From NCBI GenBank assembly GCA_965248695.1, contig CBDFKD010000002.1:5664001-5728000 (forward strand): a DNA stretch of 64,000 bases, written 5' to 3'. Below, in pieces: positions 49,170 to 57,800 of this stretch; within the stretch, counting starts at the first letter, position 1; the number at the start of each line of letters is the position of its first letter. Made by a program: the position numbers and the translations under genes. This DNA is from Acidobacteriota bacterium. Lineage in GTDB: Bacteria > Acidobacteriota > UBA890 > WLXD01. The notes under the pieces were generated by a model. The model was not told where the DNA came from. It saw only the letters and a list, made by a program, of their open reading frames with translations, and did not search any database.

Positions 49170-49693
49170 TCACGGAGGAAGATGCGGCGAGGCCCCTCGG
49201 CCGCTGCCGACTCAGCCTGATCGTCGCCGTGGCCGAGAACGGCACTATCGGGCGCGACGGCGCTCTCCCCTGGCACCTGCCAGACGATCTTAGGCGATTC
49301 AAGGCGGTCACCCTCGGACACCCGATCATCATGGGTCGGCGGACATACGATTCGATCGGCCGGCCGCTGCCGGGCCGGCGAAGCATCGTGCTCAGCCGCG
49401 ACCCCGACTATCGGGTCGACGGCGTTGAGGTCGCCGGATCGCTCGACGCGGCGTTGCGGGCCGCGGCGGATCAGGATGAGGTCTTCGTCATCGGCGGCGC
49501 CGCGCTCTTCGACGCAGCACTACCGATCGCCGATCGGATCTATCTGACTCGGGTGCACGCCACCGTCGAAGGAGACGTTGGGTTTCCACAGCTCGATGCA
49601 AAGCGCTGGCGGCTGATCTCCGATGAGCCTCACGCTGCGGATGCGGAGCACCGTTTCGCCTTCAGCTTCCGCATTTACGAGTTAGTGGCGTAA
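49166..49693 (+). CDS. folA: Dihydrofolate reductase (last codons supplied by the integrated element)
   Basis: [42 protein letters not shown]; GTGA overlap with thyA. Confidence 0.95.
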
Positions 49694-49706
49694 GTGATTG
49701 ACTCAA

Positions 49707-50954
49707 TTAGACTTGCTCATTCATCGTCTTGGACTGGGTGCGCGGGGGGTGCGCGTTCCGCCTCAGAGGGTGCATTACCAGGGTCGTCGCCTGACCCTCG
49801 ATCACGTGCGAATACGTCTCCAGTATCTCGGTGGTGGAGTGCCCCATTCGCCTTGCTACTTCTTGCGGGTGCGCCGTCTTGAGCGCGTGGGTTGCCCACG
49901 CGTGACGGAATCCGTGGAGCCCAAAGTCGGGCACGCCTGCCTTGCGCACGAGCCGCTTCCAGACCGTATTGCGATAGCTGCTAGCTCCGACCGGGCCGCC
50001 GTGGCGATGCCTAAACACCCACTTTGACGGCGCCCTCCCACAACTAACCGCGTCACGGTCCTGCTTGGTGCGATGGTGGCGCAGCCGGACCGCGAGATCC
50101 GGGGAGATCGGTAGCTTTTGGTAGTTACGGTTCTTGGTATGGCCGCGCACCTCGGAGCGCACGAACTGCCGCTCGATCAGAACGTGGTTGTCCTCGAAGT
50201 CCAGGTCGGCCCACTGTAGCCCGCACGTCTGGGAGATCCTGCACCCGGTCTCCATCAGGAACTCGAGCAGGCACCTGTCGCGGGTTCCCAGGTAATCGGC
50301 GGCCCTATCAATCCGCTCCAGTTGCCCGCGTGTCCACGCCTTGGGCGGCTTCTTGATCTTGCGGACCTTGGGGAGTTGCTTGCGGGTGACCGGACTCGAC
50401 TCAATCAGTTCATCCTCGGCCGCGGACGCCATGAGCGCCGACAGCACGCGGAAGACATTGCGGACCGTCTTTTGGCCCAGCGGCCTGCCGTAACCCTCGC
50501 CACGCTTGCCCTTGTCTCCACGCTTGCCGTACTTCGCCACGCCGGCGATCCACAACTTGACCGCTCGCTTGGAAATCTCGGTAATGGGCCTGTGTCCTAG
50601 CGCCGGCAAGATGTGACAGTCGAGCGTCGATCTGTAGATGGCTATTGTCGTCGGCGCCCAACCGTCGTCAGTGGAGTTGACCGCCTCCCACTCTTTGGCG
50701 TACTCGCCAACGGTCACGACCTTGGCAGGCAGGACGCTGTCGGCCGCCTGGCGCAGCGCCTCCCTGACGCTCCCGCCGTAGCCTGCAGCATCGGCCCTCG
50801 CCATCAACCGCGAAAACTCAACCGCCGCTGCCTCCGCCTCGGCCTTGCTGATGAAGCTGTACGAGGCTCGGTGCCCTTTGCGGTTGATGAACACCCACCA
50901 CTTGTCTGAGCCTTTCTTACGCCTGACCCGCACCCCCACGTTGGCCCCCTTCAC
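49707..50954 (-). CDS. Tyrosine integrase
   Basis: N-terminal arm-binding region (WWVFINRKG); SAM-like HILPALG; catalytic TGCR, TKN, HGFRH, MGHS, TYSH all present. Confidence 0.93.
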   Translation of the reverse strand: MKGANVGVRVRRKKGSDKWWVFINRKGHRASYSFISKAEAEAAAVEFSRLMARADAAGYGGSVREALRQAADSVLPAKVVTVGEYAKEWEAVNSTDDGWAPTTIAIYRSTLDCHILPALGHRPITEISKRAVKLWIAGVAKYGKRGDKGKRGEGYGRPLGQKTVRNVFRVLSALMASAAEDELIESSPVTRKQLPKVRKIKKPPKAWTRGQLERIDRAADYLGTRDRCLLEFLMETGCRISQTCGLQWADLDFEDNHVLIERQFVRSEVRGHTKNRNYQKLPISPDLAVRLRHHRTKQDRDAVSCGRAPSKWVFRHRHGGPVGASSYRNTVWKRLVRKAGVPDFGLHGFRHAWATHALKTAHPQEVARRMGHSTTEILETYSHVIEGQATTLVMHPLRRNAHPPRTQSKTMNEQV

Positions 50955-51211
50955 GACGCGTCTCTCATCAGGCGTTCAAGCACGAGAGCCCTACCGTCGA
51001 TTCGCTCGACGTTGTTGTAGGGCTCCAGCCACGCCTGAAAGTCGCCCCATCGTATACGGACTTCTCGGGTACCTGGGATGCGTTTTGCGGGCAGCGGATT
51101 GATCTCACGATTAATCCACCTCGTGACACTGTTGGGGCTGACGTTGGCGCGGTCGCACAGCTGCTTCTTCCGCAGCATCGTGTCCGGGTGCAGCGGCGCC
51201 GGCTCGGTCAC
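50951..51211 (-). CDS. Excisionase-like HTH protein
   Basis: LRKKQLCDRANVSPNSVTRWI..LPAKRIP..VRIRW..FQAWL; coupled to int by GTGA. Confidence 0.75.
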   Translation of the reverse strand: MTEPAPLHPDTMLRKKQLCDRANVSPNSVTRWINREINPLPAKRIPGTREVRIRWGDFQAWLEPYNNVERIDGRALVLERLMRDAS

Positions 51212-51381
51212 TTGGCCCGCCTCAATGCGTTGCGCGACGCTACGACCCTGAAGCCGTCCTCGAACTCAACGAGCGCGCTGTTCATCTTCCCGCGGGCCAG
51301 GACACGACAGCGCTGGCCATTCCGGTCTACCGGGCGCCACCAGCTCGGCAGCCAGTACCAGATGTACGGGTAGTCCCTCAC
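51208..51381 (-). CDS. Small phage-type hypothetical protein (57 aa)
   Basis: MRDYPYIWYW..GQRCRVLARGKMNSALVEFEDGFRVVASRNALRRAK; GTGA overlap with xis; below the ORF-track cutoff. Confidence 0.65.
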   Translation of the reverse strand: MRDYPYIWYWLPSWWRPVDRNGQRCRVLARGKMNSALVEFEDGFRVVASRNALRRAK

Positions 51382-51606
51382 TTGGCGGCACTCCGGACAT
51401 CTTCAATAGAGAGCGCCCCGTCGAAGAAGACGGAGAGAGCTCCAGCCACCGCATCCGTGTTGAGTGGATCAACGTCTCCTAGCCATCCGCGGCGATGTCT
51501 CCAGCCACACCCCGTCCAGGTGGGCTATCTGGGTGCTGGGCGTGGGACCAGCCGGCGACTCTCTTGCGTTCGCGGGGTGCCAGGGCCTTCTACTCGGACT
51601 GTTGCC

Positions 51607-52056
51607 CTACGGCTCGTGCTTCGAGTGCGGGGCCTGCATTCGAACCCATCGCCGATACTGACTGGGCAGCATCCCGGTTTCGGCTTGGAACGCGTTGAGA
51701 AATGAGCGGTACGAATGTCGGCGATAGCCCGCCTCCGACGCGATCTCCTTCATCAGCTGCTGGGGCCGTGACTCCATCAGTTCGCGCGCTTTGTCGATCC
51801 GCAAACGGCGGATGTCCTTGCCGATCGTTGTCCTGTAGGCGGCACGATAGTGGCGGCATAGTAGACTTCGGGAGATTCGGAGCTGCGCTGCGATGGTCCC
51901 GACCCCGCATCCATCTGCTGCTGCGAAGTGTCGTTTGATCTGCGCCTGTGCCAGCTCTGCGACGCCAATCTTGGCGGCGTCAGGCGCTTTCCTAGATGGC
52001 AGCGTCAGGTCGTGGCGCCTTTTCGTGCCGGGTATCGCCGCGTCTGATTCTACCAT
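51607..52056 (-). CDS. Stand-alone AraC-type HTH DNA-binding protein
   Basis: IAAQLRISRSLLCRHY..RLRIDKARELM..MKEIASEAGY..FLNAFQAETGMLPSQYR; no N-terminal sensor domain. Confidence 0.85.
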   Translation of the reverse strand: MVESDAAIPGTKRRHDLTLPSRKAPDAAKIGVAELAQAQIKRHFAAADGCGVGTIAAQLRISRSLLCRHYRAAYRTTIGKDIRRLRIDKARELMESRPQQLMKEIASEAGYRRHSYRSFLNAFQAETGMLPSQYRRWVRMQAPHSKHEP

Positions 52057-52060
52057 TGCC

Positions 52061-52384
52061 TCAGCCGCTGCCGGGCCAGCCCATCGTCTCGCAGAAGCCC
52101 GGCTTTGATTGCACGGTGAGCACCACCAGAACGCTGCACTCGCCGTTGTGCCAGTAATAGCCGCAGACGACGATCGGATCGCCATCGGCGGCCACTATTT
52201 CGAAAACTTCCCGCATCCCGATCGCGCCAGGCACCAGATGCTCATGATCCCCGCAGTGATTCGTGAGGCAGTGAGTGACACGAACGTTGGATTCGCTGGT
52301 GCCGGCTTGAACGAACCCCTCAACACAGGCGAGCGCGCTCTCGGCGGTTCGCCGTGGGATTGGTACGTCATCGGGGTGGAGCAT
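52061..52384 (-). CDS. Hypothetical protein (possibly PAS-like), paralog A
   Basis: 56/107 ungapped identities (hand count) with the N-terminal part of 53100-53615. Confidence 0.7.
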   Translation of the reverse strand: MLHPDDVPIPRRTAESALACVEGFVQAGTSESNVRVTHCLTNHCGDHEHLVPGAIGMREVFEIVAADGDPIVVCGYYWHNGECSVLVVLTVQSKPGFCETMGWPGSG

Positions 52385-52700
52385 GCTGGCCTCTCACACT
52401 CTTGAGCTTTCCAGGCCTTCGGCTTCGGTGCGGGCGGCCTAGCGCCTTCGCGATGAGACGGGCGAGCTCGCCGTCCCGATCCGCCTCGAGGGCCTGCCGG
52501 AACGCACGTCGTGCGCCATACCGATAGCCTGCCGCCGCCGCCGGTACAGCAACGACGATGGCAGTGAGCAAGCTGACGGTCACCATGACCAGGCCGATCG
52601 TCTGGGGCCGGTTACCCGGCGTGTGAACGACCAGGGCCAAGGCCCCGACCGTGAAGATGTACAACCCCGCCGCTGCGACGGCCCAACGCTGCTTTCGCAC
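52368..52700 (-). CDS. Small two-TM membrane protein
   Basis: Two hydrophobic segments followed by a basic tail; same-strand gene cluster. Confidence 0.6.
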   Translation of the reverse strand: MRKQRWAVAAAGLYIFTVGALALVVHTPGNRPQTIGLVMVTVSLLTAIVVAVPAAAAGYRYGARRAFRQALEADRDGELARLIAKALGRPHRSRRPGKLKSVRGQHAPPR

Positions 52701-52738
52701 TCCGGTTCCCTCTTGCCAGCTCAGGCGTATCCCATGGC

Positions 52739-53209
52739 TCAGAGATCGACTTCTTTAAGCGCCTCGCGAGTGTCGGTCAACATGTCTAACAAAGTTGCAG
52801 ATTCGGCTGCTCCAAGGACCTGCCGAATCTCCTGCTGAGCTCCTCTCCAATGCGCATGCGCTGCAGCGGCAACGGCGCTGCCTTTTTCGGTCAGTGACAC
52901 GATCCTCTGCCGGCGGTCAGCGCCGGGCTCGATGACCAGCCAACCGCGCTCTACGAGCGGCCGCAGGATGCGGCCAAGGCTTGTGCGTTCGAGATCCAAC
53001 TGCGCAGCCAACGCACCAATAGCCATTGGTCCTAGGTACTGCACCATCGTCAACACCGGAAGCTGGGTCGAGTTCAATCCGACGGAACGCAATCGACGGT
53101 CATAGTGCCGCGTGACGCGGCGTGTGAGCTTGCGCAGCTGAAGGCAGATGCATGTGAGGGCACGTTCTTCGGCACCCACAGCAGCTGGCACGCTTGTGTC
53201 GTTCTGCAT
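52739..53209 (-). CDS. MarR-family regulator
   Basis: CICLQLRKLTRRVTRHYD..GLNSTQ..LDLERTSL..DRRQRIVSLTEKG. Confidence 0.9.
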   Translation of the reverse strand: MQNDTSVPAAVGAEERALTCICLQLRKLTRRVTRHYDRRLRSVGLNSTQLPVLTMVQYLGPMAIGALAAQLDLERTSLGRILRPLVERGWLVIEPGADRRQRIVSLTEKGSAVAAAAHAHWRGAQQEIRQVLGAAESATLLDMLTDTREALKEVDL

Positions 53210-53615
53210 GAAAAAGAGTGTATATACCCCTATTGAGCTGTGCAACCTCGTGTCTCTGCTGCCGCAACACTGAGCCGCTCTTACCCTCCCGCGGCTCCAC
53301 GCCGGCCCAGCCCATCATTTCGATGAAACCCCGCTTGGATTGGACCGTGAGAACAACCAGCACCGTGCACGCGCCGTTGTCCCAGTAGTAGCCGCACACG
53401 ACTACAACGATGTTGTCGTCGACCGACTTGTCGAGGCCTTCTCGGACCCCAAGCGCGCCGGGCACCAAACCCCGCAGATTCCCCTCGAGCTCCGCTACGG
53501 CGTGGGTGACGCAATCGTTGTGGATGCTCTCATAGCGCTGACTGACGCCCTCGACACATGCCAACTGGCTTGCATCGGTACGCGGCGGAATCGGAGAGGG
53601 TTTGGAATCCGACAT
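53100..53615 (-). CDS. Hypothetical protein (possibly PAS-like), paralog B, with a tail running into marR
   Basis: MSDSKPSPIPPRT..LACVEG..LVPGALG..VVCGYYWDNG..VLVVLTVQSK..MGW, homologous to 52061-52384. Confidence 0.65.
   Translation of the reverse strand: MSDSKPSPIPPRTDASQLACVEGVSQRYESIHNDCVTHAVAELEGNLRGLVPGALGVREGLDKSVDDNIVVVVCGYYWDNGACTVLVVLTVQSKRGFIEMMGWAGVEPREGKSGSVLRQQRHEVAQLNRGIYTLFHAERHKRASCCGCRRTCPHMHLPSAAQAHTPRHAAL
53216..53230. promoter_or_regulatory. Candidate MarR autoregulatory operator
   Basis: AT-rich palindrome GTATATAC (53220-53227) about 10 bp upstream of the marR ATG. Confidence 0.45.
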
Positions 53616-53743
53616 CACCTGCTCAGAGAGCGCCGCGCCGAGGTCGCTCAAATCATCCTGGTGGCCCGAAAGCTGAGTCGATCCCCTAAGCGCTTCGGCC
53701 CAGGGAGACGAACAGCAGGTCCTAGCCGACCGCGGTACGGCCG

Positions 53744-54107
53744 TCATGCGACCCGTCCCAGGCCGAGCAACTCCTCGAGCCGCCACACCACTTCGTCCCG
53801 GCTGATCTCCGGATGGTTCAGGTAGGTCGCCGCGTAGTAGCCGGCCACGTAGGGCTTGAACCACTCGGCGTGCTCGAAGATGTACGGCCGCTCCATGACC
53901 ACGCGGCCCTGAACGTTGAGGTGGCAGCGCTGGCAGAGCGCGACAAGGTTCCACCAGGAGCAGTTGGCCTTGTCCATGTCTAGGTGGTGGACGGTCAGCG
54001 TGTAACCGGACTCCACGTCGTGCGGGTGATCGCAGCGGGCAGCACCATCCGGAAGCGTTCTTCACGGCTGCGGCGATCTGGTGCCAGTCGTGCGGGTAGT
54101 CGTTCAC
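53744..54107 (-). pseudogene. Phage HNH endonuclease-like gene, frameshifted near 54038
   Basis: MNDYPHDWHQIAAAVKNASGWCC in one frame, RCDHPHD..LTVHHLDMDKANC..NLVALCQRCH in another. Confidence 0.75.
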
Positions 54108-54445
54108 ATCACCCTCTCGCTACCACCGAGCCCTTCGATCGCCTCGAGGACATCCGACCGGCTCGGCGGTAGAACACGGTCAGCGGCGAGGCGGGCGGCG
54201 ACGGCCACGAACATAGGGTCGTGGCCTTGAACACACGCCGTTGTCGGGCGACAGCCGCAGACTGGGCACTCCCAAGACACGTCGTATCCCATCCGCTTCG
54301 CCAACTGCTGCACGGTCTCGTAGCTCGAAGCCCGTCCGCCCGGCGCTCCTTGCCAGATGCATTCGAACTCGTCCTCGCCCACGAGCCGCCAGGCGCTGGC
54401 GGTCGGGTACCGGCCGACGATGATGCAGCGCGGCTTGTCGCCCAT
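54104..54445 (-). CDS. Hypothetical phage protein with a CxxC motif
   Basis: Overlap-coupled to neighbours at both ends; WECPVCGC. Confidence 0.5.
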   Translation of the reverse strand: MGDKPRCIIVGRYPTASAWRLVGEDEFECIWQGAPGGRASSYETVQQLAKRMGYDVSWECPVCGCRPTTACVQGHDPMFVAVAARLAADRVLPPSRSDVLEAIEGLGGSERVM

Positions 54446-54528
54446 CAGGCTGCGGGCTCCACAACCCAGGGCGCGAGCTTCCACTTGCCGCCGTGGTACC
54501 GCATGATGGGGCGCGCCGGCGCGGTCAT
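54445..54528 (-). pseudogene. N-terminal remnant of a Dam-like DNA adenine methyltransferase
   Basis: MTAPARPIMRYHGGKWKLAPWVVE matches the Dam motif X (RY.GGK..L..WI), then stops. Confidence 0.7.
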
Positions 54529-54734
54529 CCCCAACCCCAGCCGGACGGATACCCACACCGATGGCACAGATTGCGAAAGACGATCGCCTCGATGCGTCCG
54601 GAGCCGCAGCGTGGGCAGCGGCCGAGCAGCGTCAGCGCGCCACGGCGCACCCGGATCCAGACCTCAGCCAGGCGCCTCATGCGGCCCGCACCCAGCGTGA
54701 ACGCCAGGGTGCGCATAGGGTGCGTTTTGAGCAC
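54525..54734 (-). CDS. Small zinc-ribbon hypothetical protein
   Basis: CPRCG..LCHRCG; ATGA overlap with the Dam remnant; start uncertain. Confidence 0.4.
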   Translation of the reverse strand: MLKTHPMRTLAFTLGAGRMRRLAEVWIRVRRGALTLLGRCPRCGSGRIEAIVFRNLCHRCGYPSGWGWG

Positions 54735-54860
54735 CCGGCGAGAGGCCTGCCCCCCGAAACCACTGTCGCTAAAGGGGTTGGAAATGCCCCGATAAATCTT
54801 CCGCGTCTACGAGCCCACGGCATCCGCTTCCTAGCCGCGCTCCTGCTGCGGCCCAGGCGG

Positions 54861-57800
54861 TCAGTCGCGATCTAGCGGCAAGTTGACGCGACGAGCTGGC
54901 CGCGTGTTGTACTCCCGCTGCCATTCCTGATGCAAAGGCGAGTCCGGGAAGCTCTCATCCAGACCATACGGATAGCTGCTCATGGCATGAAACGGGAGCG
55001 GCTCCACACGATCACCATGCACGGTGTTCGGATCGCCGTCTTTTACCCAGCCGTTGAGGTACACGAGCCAGTCGCGGCGCCAACCGTCTGGTATCGGCGG
55101 CAGCGTGTCGACGAAGCGGAGCACGACCTCATCGCCGGCAGCAATGATCACATAGCGGTCATCCGCCTCCTGGACGAGCTCGTCGACGGCACCGTAGCGA
55201 GTGTAGCCACCGCGGTGCTGATCCCAGTTCGAGCTCGAGCTGACGGTCGCGTAGTCGAATGTCTCGTAGCCGTCGGCGGTGCGCTGCAGCGTCGAGAACC
55301 CGCGCCAGCGGATCTCGGCCTCGGCGGGCTCCAGGACGTGCAACTGCACCTCGGGTATCGCTCCGGTCATCGGATCGTGCAGCATCACTTCGCCTCCGAG
55401 CGGCACCTCCCACTCTCCCTTCCAGAGCCCGGTGGGGCGTACCCCCTGCGGATGGCGGCCGCCGACGGTATAGAAGGCGGCGTCCCAGTACAGTCGCATC
55501 GTGGTGGCGACGCGGACGCGCGGATCAGCCGGGTCGATCACATCGGTCACGTCGACGCTGATCGTCGAGTTCTTGGCGTTTGGCAGCCCGATATCCTCGA
55601 TCGCCGTACGCCATCCGCCCCGGCCGTCGGGAACCTCGATGGCGACGGGCGCGAACGCGACTCGCGGGTCGTCATCGACCACCAGGTTGATACTGGCGGT
55701 CGCCCAGTACACCCAGCCGGTAAGAAACAGGCGCACGGTGCCGCCCGTTCCAGCGTCGGCGAGCGCCAGCTCCAGGGCGTGGGGAGTGGCGAGCCCCTCG
55801 TACAGTCCGGCGTCGAACGGCGCTGACCAGACGCCGTCGACCGCCGCTAGGGCGGCGCTCCAATCGCGCCCATCCTGATCGATTGCGCTCACCGCTCGGC
55901 GCTCCTCGACCACGAACAGCCGCAGCTCGGGATGGGGCGGCGGCACGAATTTCTCGTCCGGGATCACCGTCGAGCGCTCGGGATGATCCACCGCCACCAA
56001 GCGCGCCGCATCGAGGTATCCGGCCTCGCGGAGCTCCTCGCTCAGCCGCAGCTCCAGTACACCGTCCCGCGGCTTCAGCGCGTCGCCGTCGATGGGAACG
56101 TACTCGTCGAAATCAGCCGGGTGAATTACTCCGTTGGCGAGCGGCATTCCCAGCGGCGCCACCCCGAGCACCTCGTTGATGAAGCGCCAAGAGGTCCCGT
56201 CCCAGGCGTACAGCAACGGGCACGAGCCCTCGAGGCGTTCCACCTCGGTGACCGGTCCCAGCGTTGCCCGCGCCGGCACGTCGGTCTCGTTCTGCAAGAT
56301 GCCGTTGGGCCAGGTGATCCTCACCACCTCAGCCACCGCGAGATCGCCCAGGCCGACATGCACCGCGGCACGCCGCAATCGGCGGCGCTGGTAGAGCCCC
56401 CCGGCCTTGACTTCTACCGATGCCCCGATGCCGCGAGCGTTGTTCTTGATGCCCGCGAGGCGCACGCTCAGCCAGCTGCCCAGCGGCGCTGGCTGCTCGT
56501 ACCAGACGGCGCCGGTGGCCGAGGTCGTGAGAATGTCGACGGCGCCATCGTCGTTACCATCTATCGCGTCGACGAGCTCGGCGCCGTGGCTCTCGAGCAC
56601 CGGCCCGGCGGTGAACTTCCACTGCCCGAGGTTGAGCAGCGTGTGCAGCGCGCCGTCGGCATCGACGACGAGATCGAGCCAGCCGTCGTTGTTCAGATCT
56701 GCAGCCACCGCACGCCGAACCGGGGTGGCGAAATCGAACTTCCGATCACCGAAGGTACCGTCGCCGTCGTTGCGCAGCCCCTGGAGCCCGTTGCCACCAG
56801 CGAGCACCAGGTCGACGGCACCGTCGTTGTCGAAGTCCTCGGCGATCGCGTCGACCGTCGCCGCATCTCCTGCAGCGCCGACCGCGGCGCCGATCTCCGC
56901 AAAGCTGCCACCGCGCAGGTTGGTGTACAGCGTCGTCGGGGCGCCATCGGCGACGACATAGAAATCGATGTCGCTGTCGTCGTCGAAGTCGGCCCAGGTG
57001 ACGGCAATGGCCGGCGCCTGTGCCTCTAACCCGGCCGCGACGGTAGCGTCGGCGAACTCATCCCCTCCATGATTGAGGATCAGTCGCAAACCCGGGCCGT
57101 CTCCGCGTGTAGCGATCAGCAGATCAAGGTCGCCATCATGGTCGGCGTCTACCCAGGTGACCTCGGTGGCATCAGGCGTCGACGGTAGCCCGGTAGCCGC
57201 CACCGGCGCGAAGCGTGCTGTCGGTCCGTCCGCCAGGTTGCGGAACAGTCGCCCAGTCGCCGCCACCACGTAGAGGTCCGGGCGGCCATCGCGATCGGCG
57301 TCGCCGAGCGCCGCCGGGCCCGCCCCACGACCGCCGAGTGAAGGACTGCCGACCTGCACCAATTCCACGCGCTCGGCTCCGAGATCGCCAGCAAGCAACC
57401 GCGAATCGGGAGCCGGCGGCAGCAGCACCTCGCGGCGCGTGAACGTCAGCTCTCCCGCCGTATTCGCCGACGGCAATGTGAAGTTGGTCCGCGGCACCTC
57501 GATACGCTTGTAGCGGCCCGCCTCCAGTGCTGCCGGCGCCCGTTGTGCCTGCGAAAGTCGACGCTGGTACGTCTGGTAGCTCTCCAGAAGCGGCCGTGCC
57601 GCTTCGCGATCACCGCCACGCTGCAACAGGAAAGCGGCACGGTAGGTGGCCGACACGAAGTGCTGCAGGCCGATATCGAACCCCATGCCCATCACGACGC
57701 CATAGTGCTCGTGCGCCGACTCCACGTCTTGCAGCGCTTCGTAGGTCGCCCCGAGGTTGTAGCGGATCGCAGGATCGGCAGGATCGAGATCGACGGACCG

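Follow-up and report, generated by a model that had tools for sequence, protein, structure and literature searches.

MarR-family proteins sense by themselves, and in the design of the E. coli marRAB operon it is the repressor that senses and the activator that works via its amount. Stand-alone AraC domains of the MarA/SoxS kind require no sensor, and in the one-Cys OhrR proteins the sensing Cys occupies a position like that of a Cys in the first helix of the MarR-family protein described below. The marRAB operon with MarA, a stand-alone AraC/XylS DNA-binding domain, has been described (PMC6900184). Small proteins acting on such activators are also on record: the ANRs (AraC Negative Regulators, e.g. 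Aar), which the cited sources describe from Gram-negative pathogens, bind AraC/XylS activators (PMC4983702, PMC4038620). The gene cluster examined here resembles marRAB in that a MarR-family gene is headed by a palindromic site and is followed downstream by an AraC-family protein consisting of a DNA-binding domain only. Between and upstream of these regulator genes, however, lie genes for which marRAB has no counterpart, among them the two copies of an orphan gene, A and B.

The cluster is located in the window (the whole 64-kb stretch of DNA that was analysed) of an Acidobacteriota genome of 5.89 Mb, and it is part of the cargo of a 5.1-kb island inserted at the 3′ end of folA. The island is bordered by two att-like direct repeats of 16 nt. 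The left one, CTTCCGCATTTACGAG (49666..49681), is inside the 3′ end of folA, and the right one, CTTCCGCGTCTACGAG (54798..54813), carries the displaced original end of folA; the new 3′ end of the gene is supplied by the island. The repeat pattern has 2 matches in the 64-kb window, where 0.01 are expected. In 4/4 same-genus genomes the island is absent and folA abuts the gene of a 1162-aa protein, as judged from synteny, and the empty site in one relative (G003) overlaps by 16 nt. With a tyrosine integrase at its border, flanking direct repeats and an empty site in close relatives, the element belongs with the integrase-borne islands. It is like other small islands of this kind and like prophage remnants in its repeats, in the replacement of the target gene's 3′ end, and in the placement of an integrase and an excisionase-like gene at one end, but it is inserted in folA instead of a tRNA gene, and the 64-kb window has no tRNA genes.

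The tyrosine integrase (49707..50954, minus strand, 415 aa) was recognized by Pfam (Phage_integrase, 2.6e-27) and by PHROG 1 (integrase, 1.2e-59). Its nearest match within the family has 44% identity, and in viral contigs only 23% identity was reached. The adjoining excisionase-like HTH protein (50951..51211, minus strand, 86 aa) matches PHROG 66, "excisionase and transcriptional regulator", at E 6.7e-6, and Pfam HTH_17 at 1.3e-4, which is under the cut-off. These are followed by a 57-aa ORF (51208..51381, minus strand; codon score 0.19), which matches no known family in Pfam, PHROGs, NCBIfam or PADLOC, and by a remnant (51494..51544, minus strand), which corresponds to the 5′ end of a 116-aa gene present in multiple copies. 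The DNA of this remnant is 80–90% identical to many sites in related genomes; the product of the relatives begins MKLTP(S/T)TQIAHLDGIWLETS and belongs to no Pfam family. On the other side of the cluster, an HNH endonuclease gene (53744..54107, minus strand; PHROG 1571 HNH, 1.6e-7) is apparently frameshifted: its core lies at 53744-54016, and the 30 codons of the N terminus (54017-54107) are read in another frame. In the homologue of another genome (G007) one frame runs through the junction that is split here. Next to it is a Cys-rich ORF of 113 aa (54104..54445, minus strand) without a known family in Pfam, PHROGs, NCBIfam or PADLOC. A 40-aa ORF stub was also seen on the island. No Rfam family was matched at E ≤ 1 over 49600-54950, and the folding of two dispersed repeats gave nothing notable (z-scores of +0.3 to −1.4). 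The region 51390-54900 contained no indel in the contigs from four runs, which belong to one sample of one study.

The carrier is thus a decayed integrative island, on which genes for an integrase and an excisionase-like protein are found together with remnants and an HNH gene that is broken. The first-pass annotation had called the cluster phage cargo. This description fits insofar as the carrier is an integrase/excisionase island with decayed phage-type genes, but no virion genes are left on it, nor are replication or transfer genes. The accompanying statement that the island has no target or effector genes is borne out. Because the island is decayed, as seen from the frameshifted HNH gene, the other gene remnants and the stopless frame of B (see below), the regulatory cassette may be defunct and perhaps no longer works.

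The positions of the ORFs give the order B, marR, 2-TM, A, araC on the minus strand, in agreement with what had been proposed from the letters alone. Paralog A (52061..52384, minus strand) encodes 107 aa with a pI of 4.95, and the core of paralog B (53295..53615, minus strand), which starts with the ATG at 53615, has 107 codons and a pI of 4.73; the gene would encode a small acidic protein of about 107 aa that probably resides in the cytoplasm. Three features of the pair can be pointed out. One is that the two align without gaps, with 56 invariant columns of 107 in the MAFFT alignment (BLASTP: 55/98 identities, 0 gaps, E 2e-33), which reproduces the identity reported before and greatly exceeds what chance would give. 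Another is that the three invariant Cys noted there (C20, C74 and C83) are accompanied by an invariant His, H38, and that the named motifs, LACVEG, VTH, LVPGA.G.RE and VVCGYYW.NG.C.VLVVLTVQSK.GF.E.MGW, are all common to the two. The last is that the copies differ at their ends. B has no stop at the position matching the end of A; its reading frame continues as far as 53100, for a total of 171 aa, and overlaps the start of marR. The open-frame tail (53100..53294, minus strand, 64 codons), which contains the palindrome GTATATAC, is not coding-like (GC3 0.54; codon-usage score −0.41). The earlier description of the pair needs correction on this one point, the frame of B running on into marR. B, which is located upstream of the presumed MarR-controlled unit and has no proper stop, may be decaying.

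Relatives of A and B were sought widely. A profile of the two was compared with 1,835,955,588 representative proteins and gave four matches at E ≤ 0.001, two of which were A and B themselves; the other two are long repeat proteins matched in 4-5 short stretches. Word-index searches returned only the queries, and when longer proteins were searched nothing but B in its called form. Six-frame searches found the 2 copies in the own genome, none in 60 relatives (0/60), and a single marginal match (E 0.0026), inside an 852-aa frame, among 400 genomes of the phylum. The viral, genome and metagenome contig collections contained 0 confirmed loci. At E ≤ 1, Pfam had no family for A and only NttC for B (12.1 bits against a cut-off of 27), and PHROGs, NCBIfam and PADLOC, the defence and phage families included, had nothing for either; a phrog_17060 row for A (E 0.02) was discarded, no matched stretch passing alone. 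The PDB sequence profile search gave no match at E ≤ 10, and the ESM Atlas no usable match for A or B. As far as these searches reach, this genome is so far the only one in which the family occurs.

The fold was examined by structure prediction. AF2 on the two-sequence alignment of A and B was unusable (pLDDT 37.6), and on the B core alone it reached a pLDDT of 58.4 and a pTM of 0.48. In this low-confidence model, helices at residues 14-23, 34-50 and 57-62 would be followed by strands at 69-79, 82-93 and 96-106. A PAS-like fold had been suggested for the pair. A PAS fold is defined by an antiparallel sheet of five strands in which helices follow strand 2 and precede strand 3; the order of elements in the low-confidence model (pLDDT 58) is not that of PAS, and no PAS-clan sequence profile was matched in Pfam (E ≤ 1) or NCBIfam, so the suggestion is unsupported. 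Foldseek, which had been proposed as a check, gave no meaningful match to these weak models: none at E ≤ 0.001 in the PDB (best TFIIA, E 0.023, TM 0.23). A search of BFVD gave none at E ≤ 0.001 either (best E 0.023). In the wide VIA search two chains reached Z 5 but no chain reached Z 8; the top match (Z 5.2, with 73 residues aligned at an rmsd of 2.6) is under the stated background of 7-8. The weak rows include cystatin-like, NTF2-like and phage tail-terminator folds, none of which stands out. PilZ was considered for A because the 2-TM paralogs mentioned below are followed by PilZ proteins, and it was rejected: Pfam finds PilZ in both neighbours of those paralogs (1e-6) and in neither A nor B, and hhalign of A against the two local PilZ proteins gave a probability of 0.14% with profiles of 2 sequences each.

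The AraC/XylS-type regulator (51607..52056, minus strand, 149 aa) consists of a DNA-binding domain only. HTH_18 covers residues 55-136 with both helix-turn-helix motifs (E 1.1e-13, 51.7 bits against a cut-off of 33.6), the alignment with homologues is conserved from near residue 30, and no second Pfam domain and no N-terminal ligand-binding or dimerisation domain was detected. The stop of A (52061-52063) and the araC ATG (52054-52056) are separated by 4 nt. Pfam and the coordinates thus uphold the annotation of a sensor-less AraC protein starting 4 nt after A. Over 105 aa the protein shares 62% identity with the product of an HTH-only gene on the chromosome of a same-genus genome, and close homologues, likewise standing alone, were found in 4/4 same-genus genomes. 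At the two same-genus araC loci that were read, the neighbour is a sigma-54 activator and no A-like gene is present. Viral contigs contained no confirmed copy, and the word-index search gave none at E ≤ 1e-10 among 44 candidates, an outcome regarded as uninformative.

The MarR-family regulator (52739..53209, minus strand, 156 aa) exceeds the Pfam cut-offs of MarR_2 (30.6 bits against 27), MarR (30.2 against 24.6) and HTH_27 (34.2 against 22.2). Its nearest relative, with 47% identity, comes from another genus of the order, and homologues occur in 10/25 other genomes of the order; no relative of A or B is found in any of those genomes. Cys20 and Cys22 lie in the N-terminal helix. Among the aligned homologues of this order Cys20 is invariant (10/10) and the CxC is present in 8/10, and in this Cys of the first helix the protein is like the thiol-sensing OhrR-type MarR proteins. 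It differs from them in that the NCBIfam OhrR model gives only 21.5 bits against 200, and in that no peroxiredoxin or obvious target gene adjoins it.

The palindrome GTATATAC (53220..53227) lies before marR, 10 nt upstream of its ATG. It occurs as a single copy in the 64-kb window, where 0.05 are expected, and at 4 sites in the 5.89-Mb genome. It was also found beside marR homologues in 3/9 loci of relatives (G014, G006 and G008, in the last twice, once before a neighbouring gene), against 0/13 other foreign loci. The palindrome is probably the MarR operator, as far as its position and recurrence can indicate binding. Among the host promoters that might be affected, a second GGTATATACACTC site in the genome is a candidate for MarR cross-talk.

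Between marR and A lies the gene of a 110-aa protein with two hydrophobic spans (2-TM; 52368..52700, minus strand), which belongs to no Pfam family above the cut-off. It has two paralogs in the own genome (48% and 40% identity), which are followed by a different small protein with a PilZ domain. The distance from marR to 2-TM is 38 nt, 2-TM and the start of A have 17 nt in common, and A is followed by araC after the 4 nt given above. A marR gene and a sensor-less araC-type gene are thus found in one tightly packed same-strand cluster. Since a consensus scan of 51200-54900 found no sigma-70-type promoter, it is from the gene spacing that the operon structure is read.

Taken with the properties of the two regulators, marR, 2-TM, A and araC are best read as a marRA-type cassette, and not as orphan outputs each needing a sensor; we give this reading a probability of about 45%. 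In such a cassette, MarR, with its invariant Cys in the first helix, would bind GTATATAC just upstream of its own start and repress the operon of marR, 2-TM, A and araC. Inactivation of MarR by an oxidant, an electrophile or a ligand would allow the operon to be made, and the sensor-less AraC-type protein, being of the MarA/SoxS kind, would control promoters beyond the island according to how much of it is present. A would be made together with the AraC protein, and it may modulate either this protein or the membrane protein. We infer, and do not observe, that the palindrome serves as operator, that the genes are co-transcribed and that MarR senses via its Cys; the same applies to whatever part A and B may play. 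The cassette has the design of marRAB in common with it and not the descent: it is not orthologous, as the NCBIfam models give 31.9 bits against 240 for E. coli MarR and 22.7 against 174 for SoxS, so that the AraC protein is not assigned as an ortholog of MarA, SoxS or Rob. It also differs in that 2-TM and A lie between marR and araC, in that a second orphan copy is located upstream, and in that it resides on an integrative island of an Acidobacteriota, with its regulation deduced from sequence. The cassette reading leaves the retention of the orphan gene in two copies unexplained and is silent on the action of A and B.

Three other readings of A and B were weighed against this one. That they are not genes at all, but a duplicated non-coding or antisense stretch open by chance, finds some ground in the antisense frames that are open in both copies (52109-52405 and 53340-53825, plus strand), in an antisense codon score for A (0.19) as high as the sense score (0.16), and in protein language model "recognition" values of 1779 and 1473 against 2300 for most known families, although this value does not decide whether a gene is real. 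The pattern of change between the copies argues otherwise. They are gapless over 107 codons at 63% DNA identity, and the identity by codon position in the minus-strand frame is 0.65/0.67/0.55, the third position being the least conserved. By the Nei-Gojobori method, dN/dS comes to 0.44 over the whole length and falls to 0.24 for the 41 codons at the C terminus, with synonymous changes in excess over non-synonymous ones (Fisher p = 0.001). The GC contents by codon position (.66/.46/.73 in A and.64/.43/.76 in the B core) and the codon usage are gene-like for A and the B core, unlike those of the B tail and of the upstream extension, while the other two frames of the same strand have stops in both copies. 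The antisense ORFs were rejected as real genes, for they match no Pfam family and the codon-position pattern is wrong for them. A chance origin of the frames is accordingly very improbable, and A and B bear the marks of a genuine protein-coding gene that was duplicated long ago and whose copies have since diverged. A somewhat unlikely but more substantial reading takes them as island genes unrelated to the regulators, such as an accessory or conflict protein of a mobile element, placed there by an accident of a mosaic island. Mobile elements commonly carry small orphan genes. The island itself is pieced together, its HNH gene being broken and an ORF stub and what remains of a multi-copy gene lying on it as well; the nearest relatives of its genes are scattered (same genus for AraC, own genome for 2-TM, another genus for MarR), and the own-genome 2-TM paralogs have a PilZ-domain protein in the place of an A-like one. 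Against it, the 17-nt overlap with 2-TM and the 4-nt gap to araC suggest co-expression with the regulators, and neither PADLOC nor PHROGs assigned A or B to a defence or phage family.

The first-pass annotation had favoured a split one-component system, in which A and B would be trans-acting, Cys-based sensors of redox state, metal or ligand, each binding the adjacent HTH regulator (A with AraC, B with MarR). Several observations are consistent with this: A ends just before the sensor-less araC and B is directly upstream of marR; C20, H38, C74 and C83 are invariant between A and B; both products are acidic, whereas AraC and MarR are basic (pI 10.6 and 9.6); and the ANRs are, in the papers cited at the outset, small proteins that bind AraC-family regulators. 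The ANRs are indeed the nearest precedent, for A is likewise small, is encoded with an AraC-family regulator and could bind it. A and B differ from them, however, in matching no Pfam or NCBIfam family and in their predicted three strands after three helices (low confidence). As the searches found no relatives of A and B, there is no conserved linkage or fusion to cite, and homologues of both regulators occur without an A/B-like partner. MarR-family proteins sense alone, this MarR having an invariant Cys of its own, and a sensor is not required by AraC domains of the MarA/SoxS kind; Pfam gave no match to PAS or to any other sensor family; and B is outside the palindrome-headed unit, with its frame running into marR. 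On balance, the evidence obtained leans away from a diffusible sensor, and we regard the split system as improbable. A broader form of the idea has hardly better prospects: A and B would be the first members of a family of small acidic proteins, bearing Cys and His, which attach to unrelated basic HTH regulators (AraC-type and MarR-type) and set their activity, as a portable trans-acting modulator or sensor module of mobile islands in two specialised copies.

As the evidence stands, the locus is a cleanly delimited small folA island with a marRA-style cassette and a duplicated, selected orphan gene that has no relative among some 15 billion predicted proteins. So far nothing distinguishes A and B from the numerous orphan genes that mobile elements carry, and the pair is a reasonable candidate for structure or interaction work. 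If it is true that A and B modulate two unrelated families of regulators, they would represent a new kind of detachable control module, and the island would be an example of a mobile element rewiring the transcription of its host.

Five genes are located on the minus strand in window positions 51607-53615, and their order in the direction of transcription is as follows: paralog B (start ATG at 53615), a MarR-family gene (53209-52739), a 110-aa ORF with two hydrophobic spans (52700-52368; referred to as 2-TM hereafter), paralog A (107 aa; 52384-52061), and an AraC-family gene (149 aa; 52056-51607). The end of the 2-TM ORF overlaps A by 17 nt, and the araC start follows the A stop codon by 4 nt. 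This order and the tight A-araC junction, described in the first-pass annotation, were borne out by the ORF reading of the window. The same holds for the gapless paralogy reported there: the alignment of A and B over 107 codons contains 56 invariant columns, which include C20, H38, C74, C83 and the motifs previously listed, and BLASTP gave 55/98 identities (E 2e-33). One sample was covered by four runs, and their contigs match the window over 51390-54900 without insertion or deletion and with one base difference at 53053. This difference, A to G inside marR in the contigs of one of the four runs (depth 13.9), is possibly strain variation.

The reading of A and B as non-genes is unlikely in view of their substitution pattern. 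Their DNA identity is 63%, and the values for the respective codon positions (0.65/0.67/0.55) indicate that the third position of the A/B frame is the least conserved. The Nei-Gojobori analysis gave a pS of 0.54 and a pN of 0.32, with a dN/dS of 0.44 overall and 0.24 over the last 41 codons; the synonymous excess was significant overall (Fisher p = 0.001) and in the C-terminal part (p = 0.0006). The GC content by codon position is also typical for genes of this genome, and the sequence evidence as a whole says that A and B are genes. Their antisense frames are open too, which is common at 65% GC; these frames were rejected as real genes, since they matched no Pfam family and the codon-position pattern was the reverse of that expected. 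B has no stop at the position of A's end, and its frame stays open for 64 codons further, to 53100, across the marR start. This tail (GC3 0.54; codon-usage score -0.41 vs +0.24 for the B core) is non-coding in composition.

The searches that were run found no relatives of A and B. A profile of the two proteins gave four matches at E <= 0.001 among 1,835,955,588 representative proteins: A itself and a gene finder's version of B (215 aa) account for two of them, and the other two are long repeat proteins matched in four or five short stretches, which we regarded as spurious. Word-index searches returned self only and, among longer proteins, B only; no fusion, which the first-pass annotation proposed to look for, is recorded. 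In six-frame searches, the own genome yielded two copies and the 60 relatives yielded none; among 400 genomes of the phylum, there was one marginal match (E 0.0026, 19.9 bits), located within an 852-aa frame. A pattern search gave 31, 29, and 215 matches in viral, genome, and metagenome contigs, respectively, with 0 confirmed loci. Nothing was found in Pfam, PHROGs, NCBIfam, PADLOC, or with a PDB sequence profile, and the ESM Atlas gave no usable match. The AF2 model from the two-sequence alignment was unusable (pLDDT 37.6). On the B core alone, it gave a weak model (pLDDT 58.4, pTM 0.48) of three helices followed by a three-stranded meander, whose element order is unlike that of a PAS domain and which is too weak to exclude any fold. 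Foldseek against PDB and BFVD returned nothing at E <= 0.001 for this model, and the best Z of an exhaustive structural aligner (5.2) was under the aligner's own stated background.

The five genes are carried on a 5.1-kb insert in the 3′ end of folA. In all four same-genus genomes, folA directly abuts the gene of a 1162-aa FG-GAP/ASPIC protein; in the window, the former extends to about 49681 and the latter starts from about 54800. The matches of the two sides overlap by 16 nt in one of these genomes, and this 16-mer is found at both insert ends (49666-49681 and 54798-54813; 14/16 positions agree), its pattern giving 2 matches vs 0.01 expected. The island supplies a new folA 3′ end (…FRIYELVA stop; 49666-49693), and the sequence that originally ended the gene (…FRVYEPT…) now lies at the right border, 54798 onward. 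Besides the cluster, the insert contains a tyrosine integrase gene, an excisionase-like HTH gene, a 57-aa ORF, a 20-codon gene remnant (51494-51544, minus strand), an HNH endonuclease gene (53744-54107), a 113-aa Cys-rich ORF, and a 40-aa stub (54445-54567, minus strand). The designation "phage cargo" is therefore correct in part: no virion genes or tRNA were found in the insert, which is an integrative island of small size and in a decayed state.

Several of these parts have counterparts elsewhere. The 51-nt stretch at 51494-51544 has 80-90% identity to numerous sites in the family's genomes. It represents the 5′ end of a 116-aa gene that occurs in multiple copies (MKLTPTTQIAHVDGIWLETS…; compared in the genome stretches L056 and L063 2703-3053), and about 20 codons of this gene are left in the window; the product matched no Pfam family. 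A second dispersed repeat (54684-54779), just inside the right border, matches the own genome (C2:5010803) and the related genomes G001, G002, and G004 at 77-89% over 50-100 nt, and its folding is unremarkable. In the HNH gene, an apparent frameshift separates the N-terminal 30 codons from the core, and the contigs of the four runs show no indel there; three further copies of the core (79% DNA identity) occur in the genome (G000:C2:709267, 2319472, 3846123). The 40-aa ORF (…RYHGGKWKLAPW…), which matched no Pfam family, may resemble the N-terminus of DNA adenine methylases and is possibly a further remnant of a gene. In G007, a full DNA methylase adjoins the HNH-like gene of a related element.

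The MarR protein passes the Pfam cut-offs. Of 25 other genomes of the order, 10 contain homologues (best identity 47%); the neighbourhoods read in G014 and G008 contain unrelated genes. Cys20 is invariant among the 10 homologues aligned, 8 of which have a CxC pair. A palindrome, GTATATAC, is located 10 nt upstream of the marR ATG. It has no second copy in the 64-kb window, where 0.05 copies would be expected, and the 5.89-Mb genome contains four. It is also found, with similar flanks, beside the marR homologues of G014, G008, and G006, and G008 has two sites, one in front of a neighbouring NmrA-like gene. Its presence at 3/9 relatives' marR loci vs 0/13 other foreign loci suggests that it is probably the operator of this MarR subfamily. 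The extended motif GGTATATACACTC at the island marR has one other site in the genome, G000:C2:4699137-4699149 (L061 about 1838-1850), just downstream of a 575-aa ORF for a putative FAD-dependent amine oxidase; this site is a possible host target of the island MarR.

The AraC protein consists of the DNA-binding domain only (HTH_18, 51.7 bits vs the cut-off of 33.6), as had been noted; a same-genus genome has a chromosomal gene whose product is 62% identical to it over 105 residues. Homologues occur in 4/4 same-genus genomes and 7/25 other genomes of the order. At the two loci read, the homologue adjoins genes for a sigma-54 activator, an ECF sigma factor, and an ACT-domain protein, without an A-like ORF in the vicinity. 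The chromosomal HTH-only araC, which the genus conserves in its other four genomes, is mostly deleted in G000, the genome of the window (L018 2080-3216 = G000:C2:539579-540715; compared with L013 2918-3382 and 3496-4503), where the sigma-54 activator ORF runs directly into its last ~45 codons (…SYRTFLNAFRAETGMSPS…). The island araC is the only match in its own genome at E <= 1e-5 and may substitute for the lost gene.

The most likely reading of the cluster is a putative marRAB-like design, with an operator-headed marR and a sensor-less araC. MarR would be the sensor, perhaps via Cys20 (Cys-based sensing is known for OhrR-type proteins), and the AraC-type protein would be the output and act on promoters that are not part of the island, so that neither HTH protein would lack a sensor. 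The marRAB operon follows this logic, with a repressor that senses and an activator whose effect depends on its amount. A and the AraC protein would be expressed together; B, upstream of the operator, would be outside the operator-headed unit and may be decaying. The feature shared with marRAB (for the operon and MarA, see PMC6900184) is a marR followed by a sensor-less AraC-type gene in one tight cluster. The likeness is in design only; against the NCBIfam models for E. coli MarR and SoxS, the scores are far under the cut-offs. The reading is weakened by a consensus scan that found no sigma-70-type promoter in the cluster region.

The model of the first-pass annotation, in which A and B are sensors split from the adjacent HTH regulators, is compatible with the short distance from A to araC, the invariance of four Cys/His residues, and the acidic nature of A and B vs the two basic regulators; small proteins binding AraC proteins, the ANR family, are also known (PMC4983702, PMC4038620). 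However, relatives of both regulators do without such partners, and none of the tests run gave support. That A and B are instead island genes unrelated to the regulators is favoured by the mosaic state of the island and by the 2-TM paralogs of the own genome, which precede a different small protein. These paralogs (40% and 48% identity; L040 1477-2133 = G000:C2:4424306-4424962 and L039 1426-3113 = G000:C2:710670-712357) are each followed by a small PilZ-domain protein, which at one locus starts 4 nt after the 2-TM stop, and the two PilZ proteins share 50% identity. A itself was rejected as a PilZ-like protein (hhalign probability 0.14% against these two).

For A and B, which have no known kin, there is as yet no evidence of an unusual mechanism, and the regulator cassette around them is of an ordinary marRA style. 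The pair represents a real orphan gene that has been duplicated and is under selection, and it lies on a small island with clean borders. Its dS near 0.95 indicates that the duplication is old, and the family has thus persisted for a long time somewhere unsampled.
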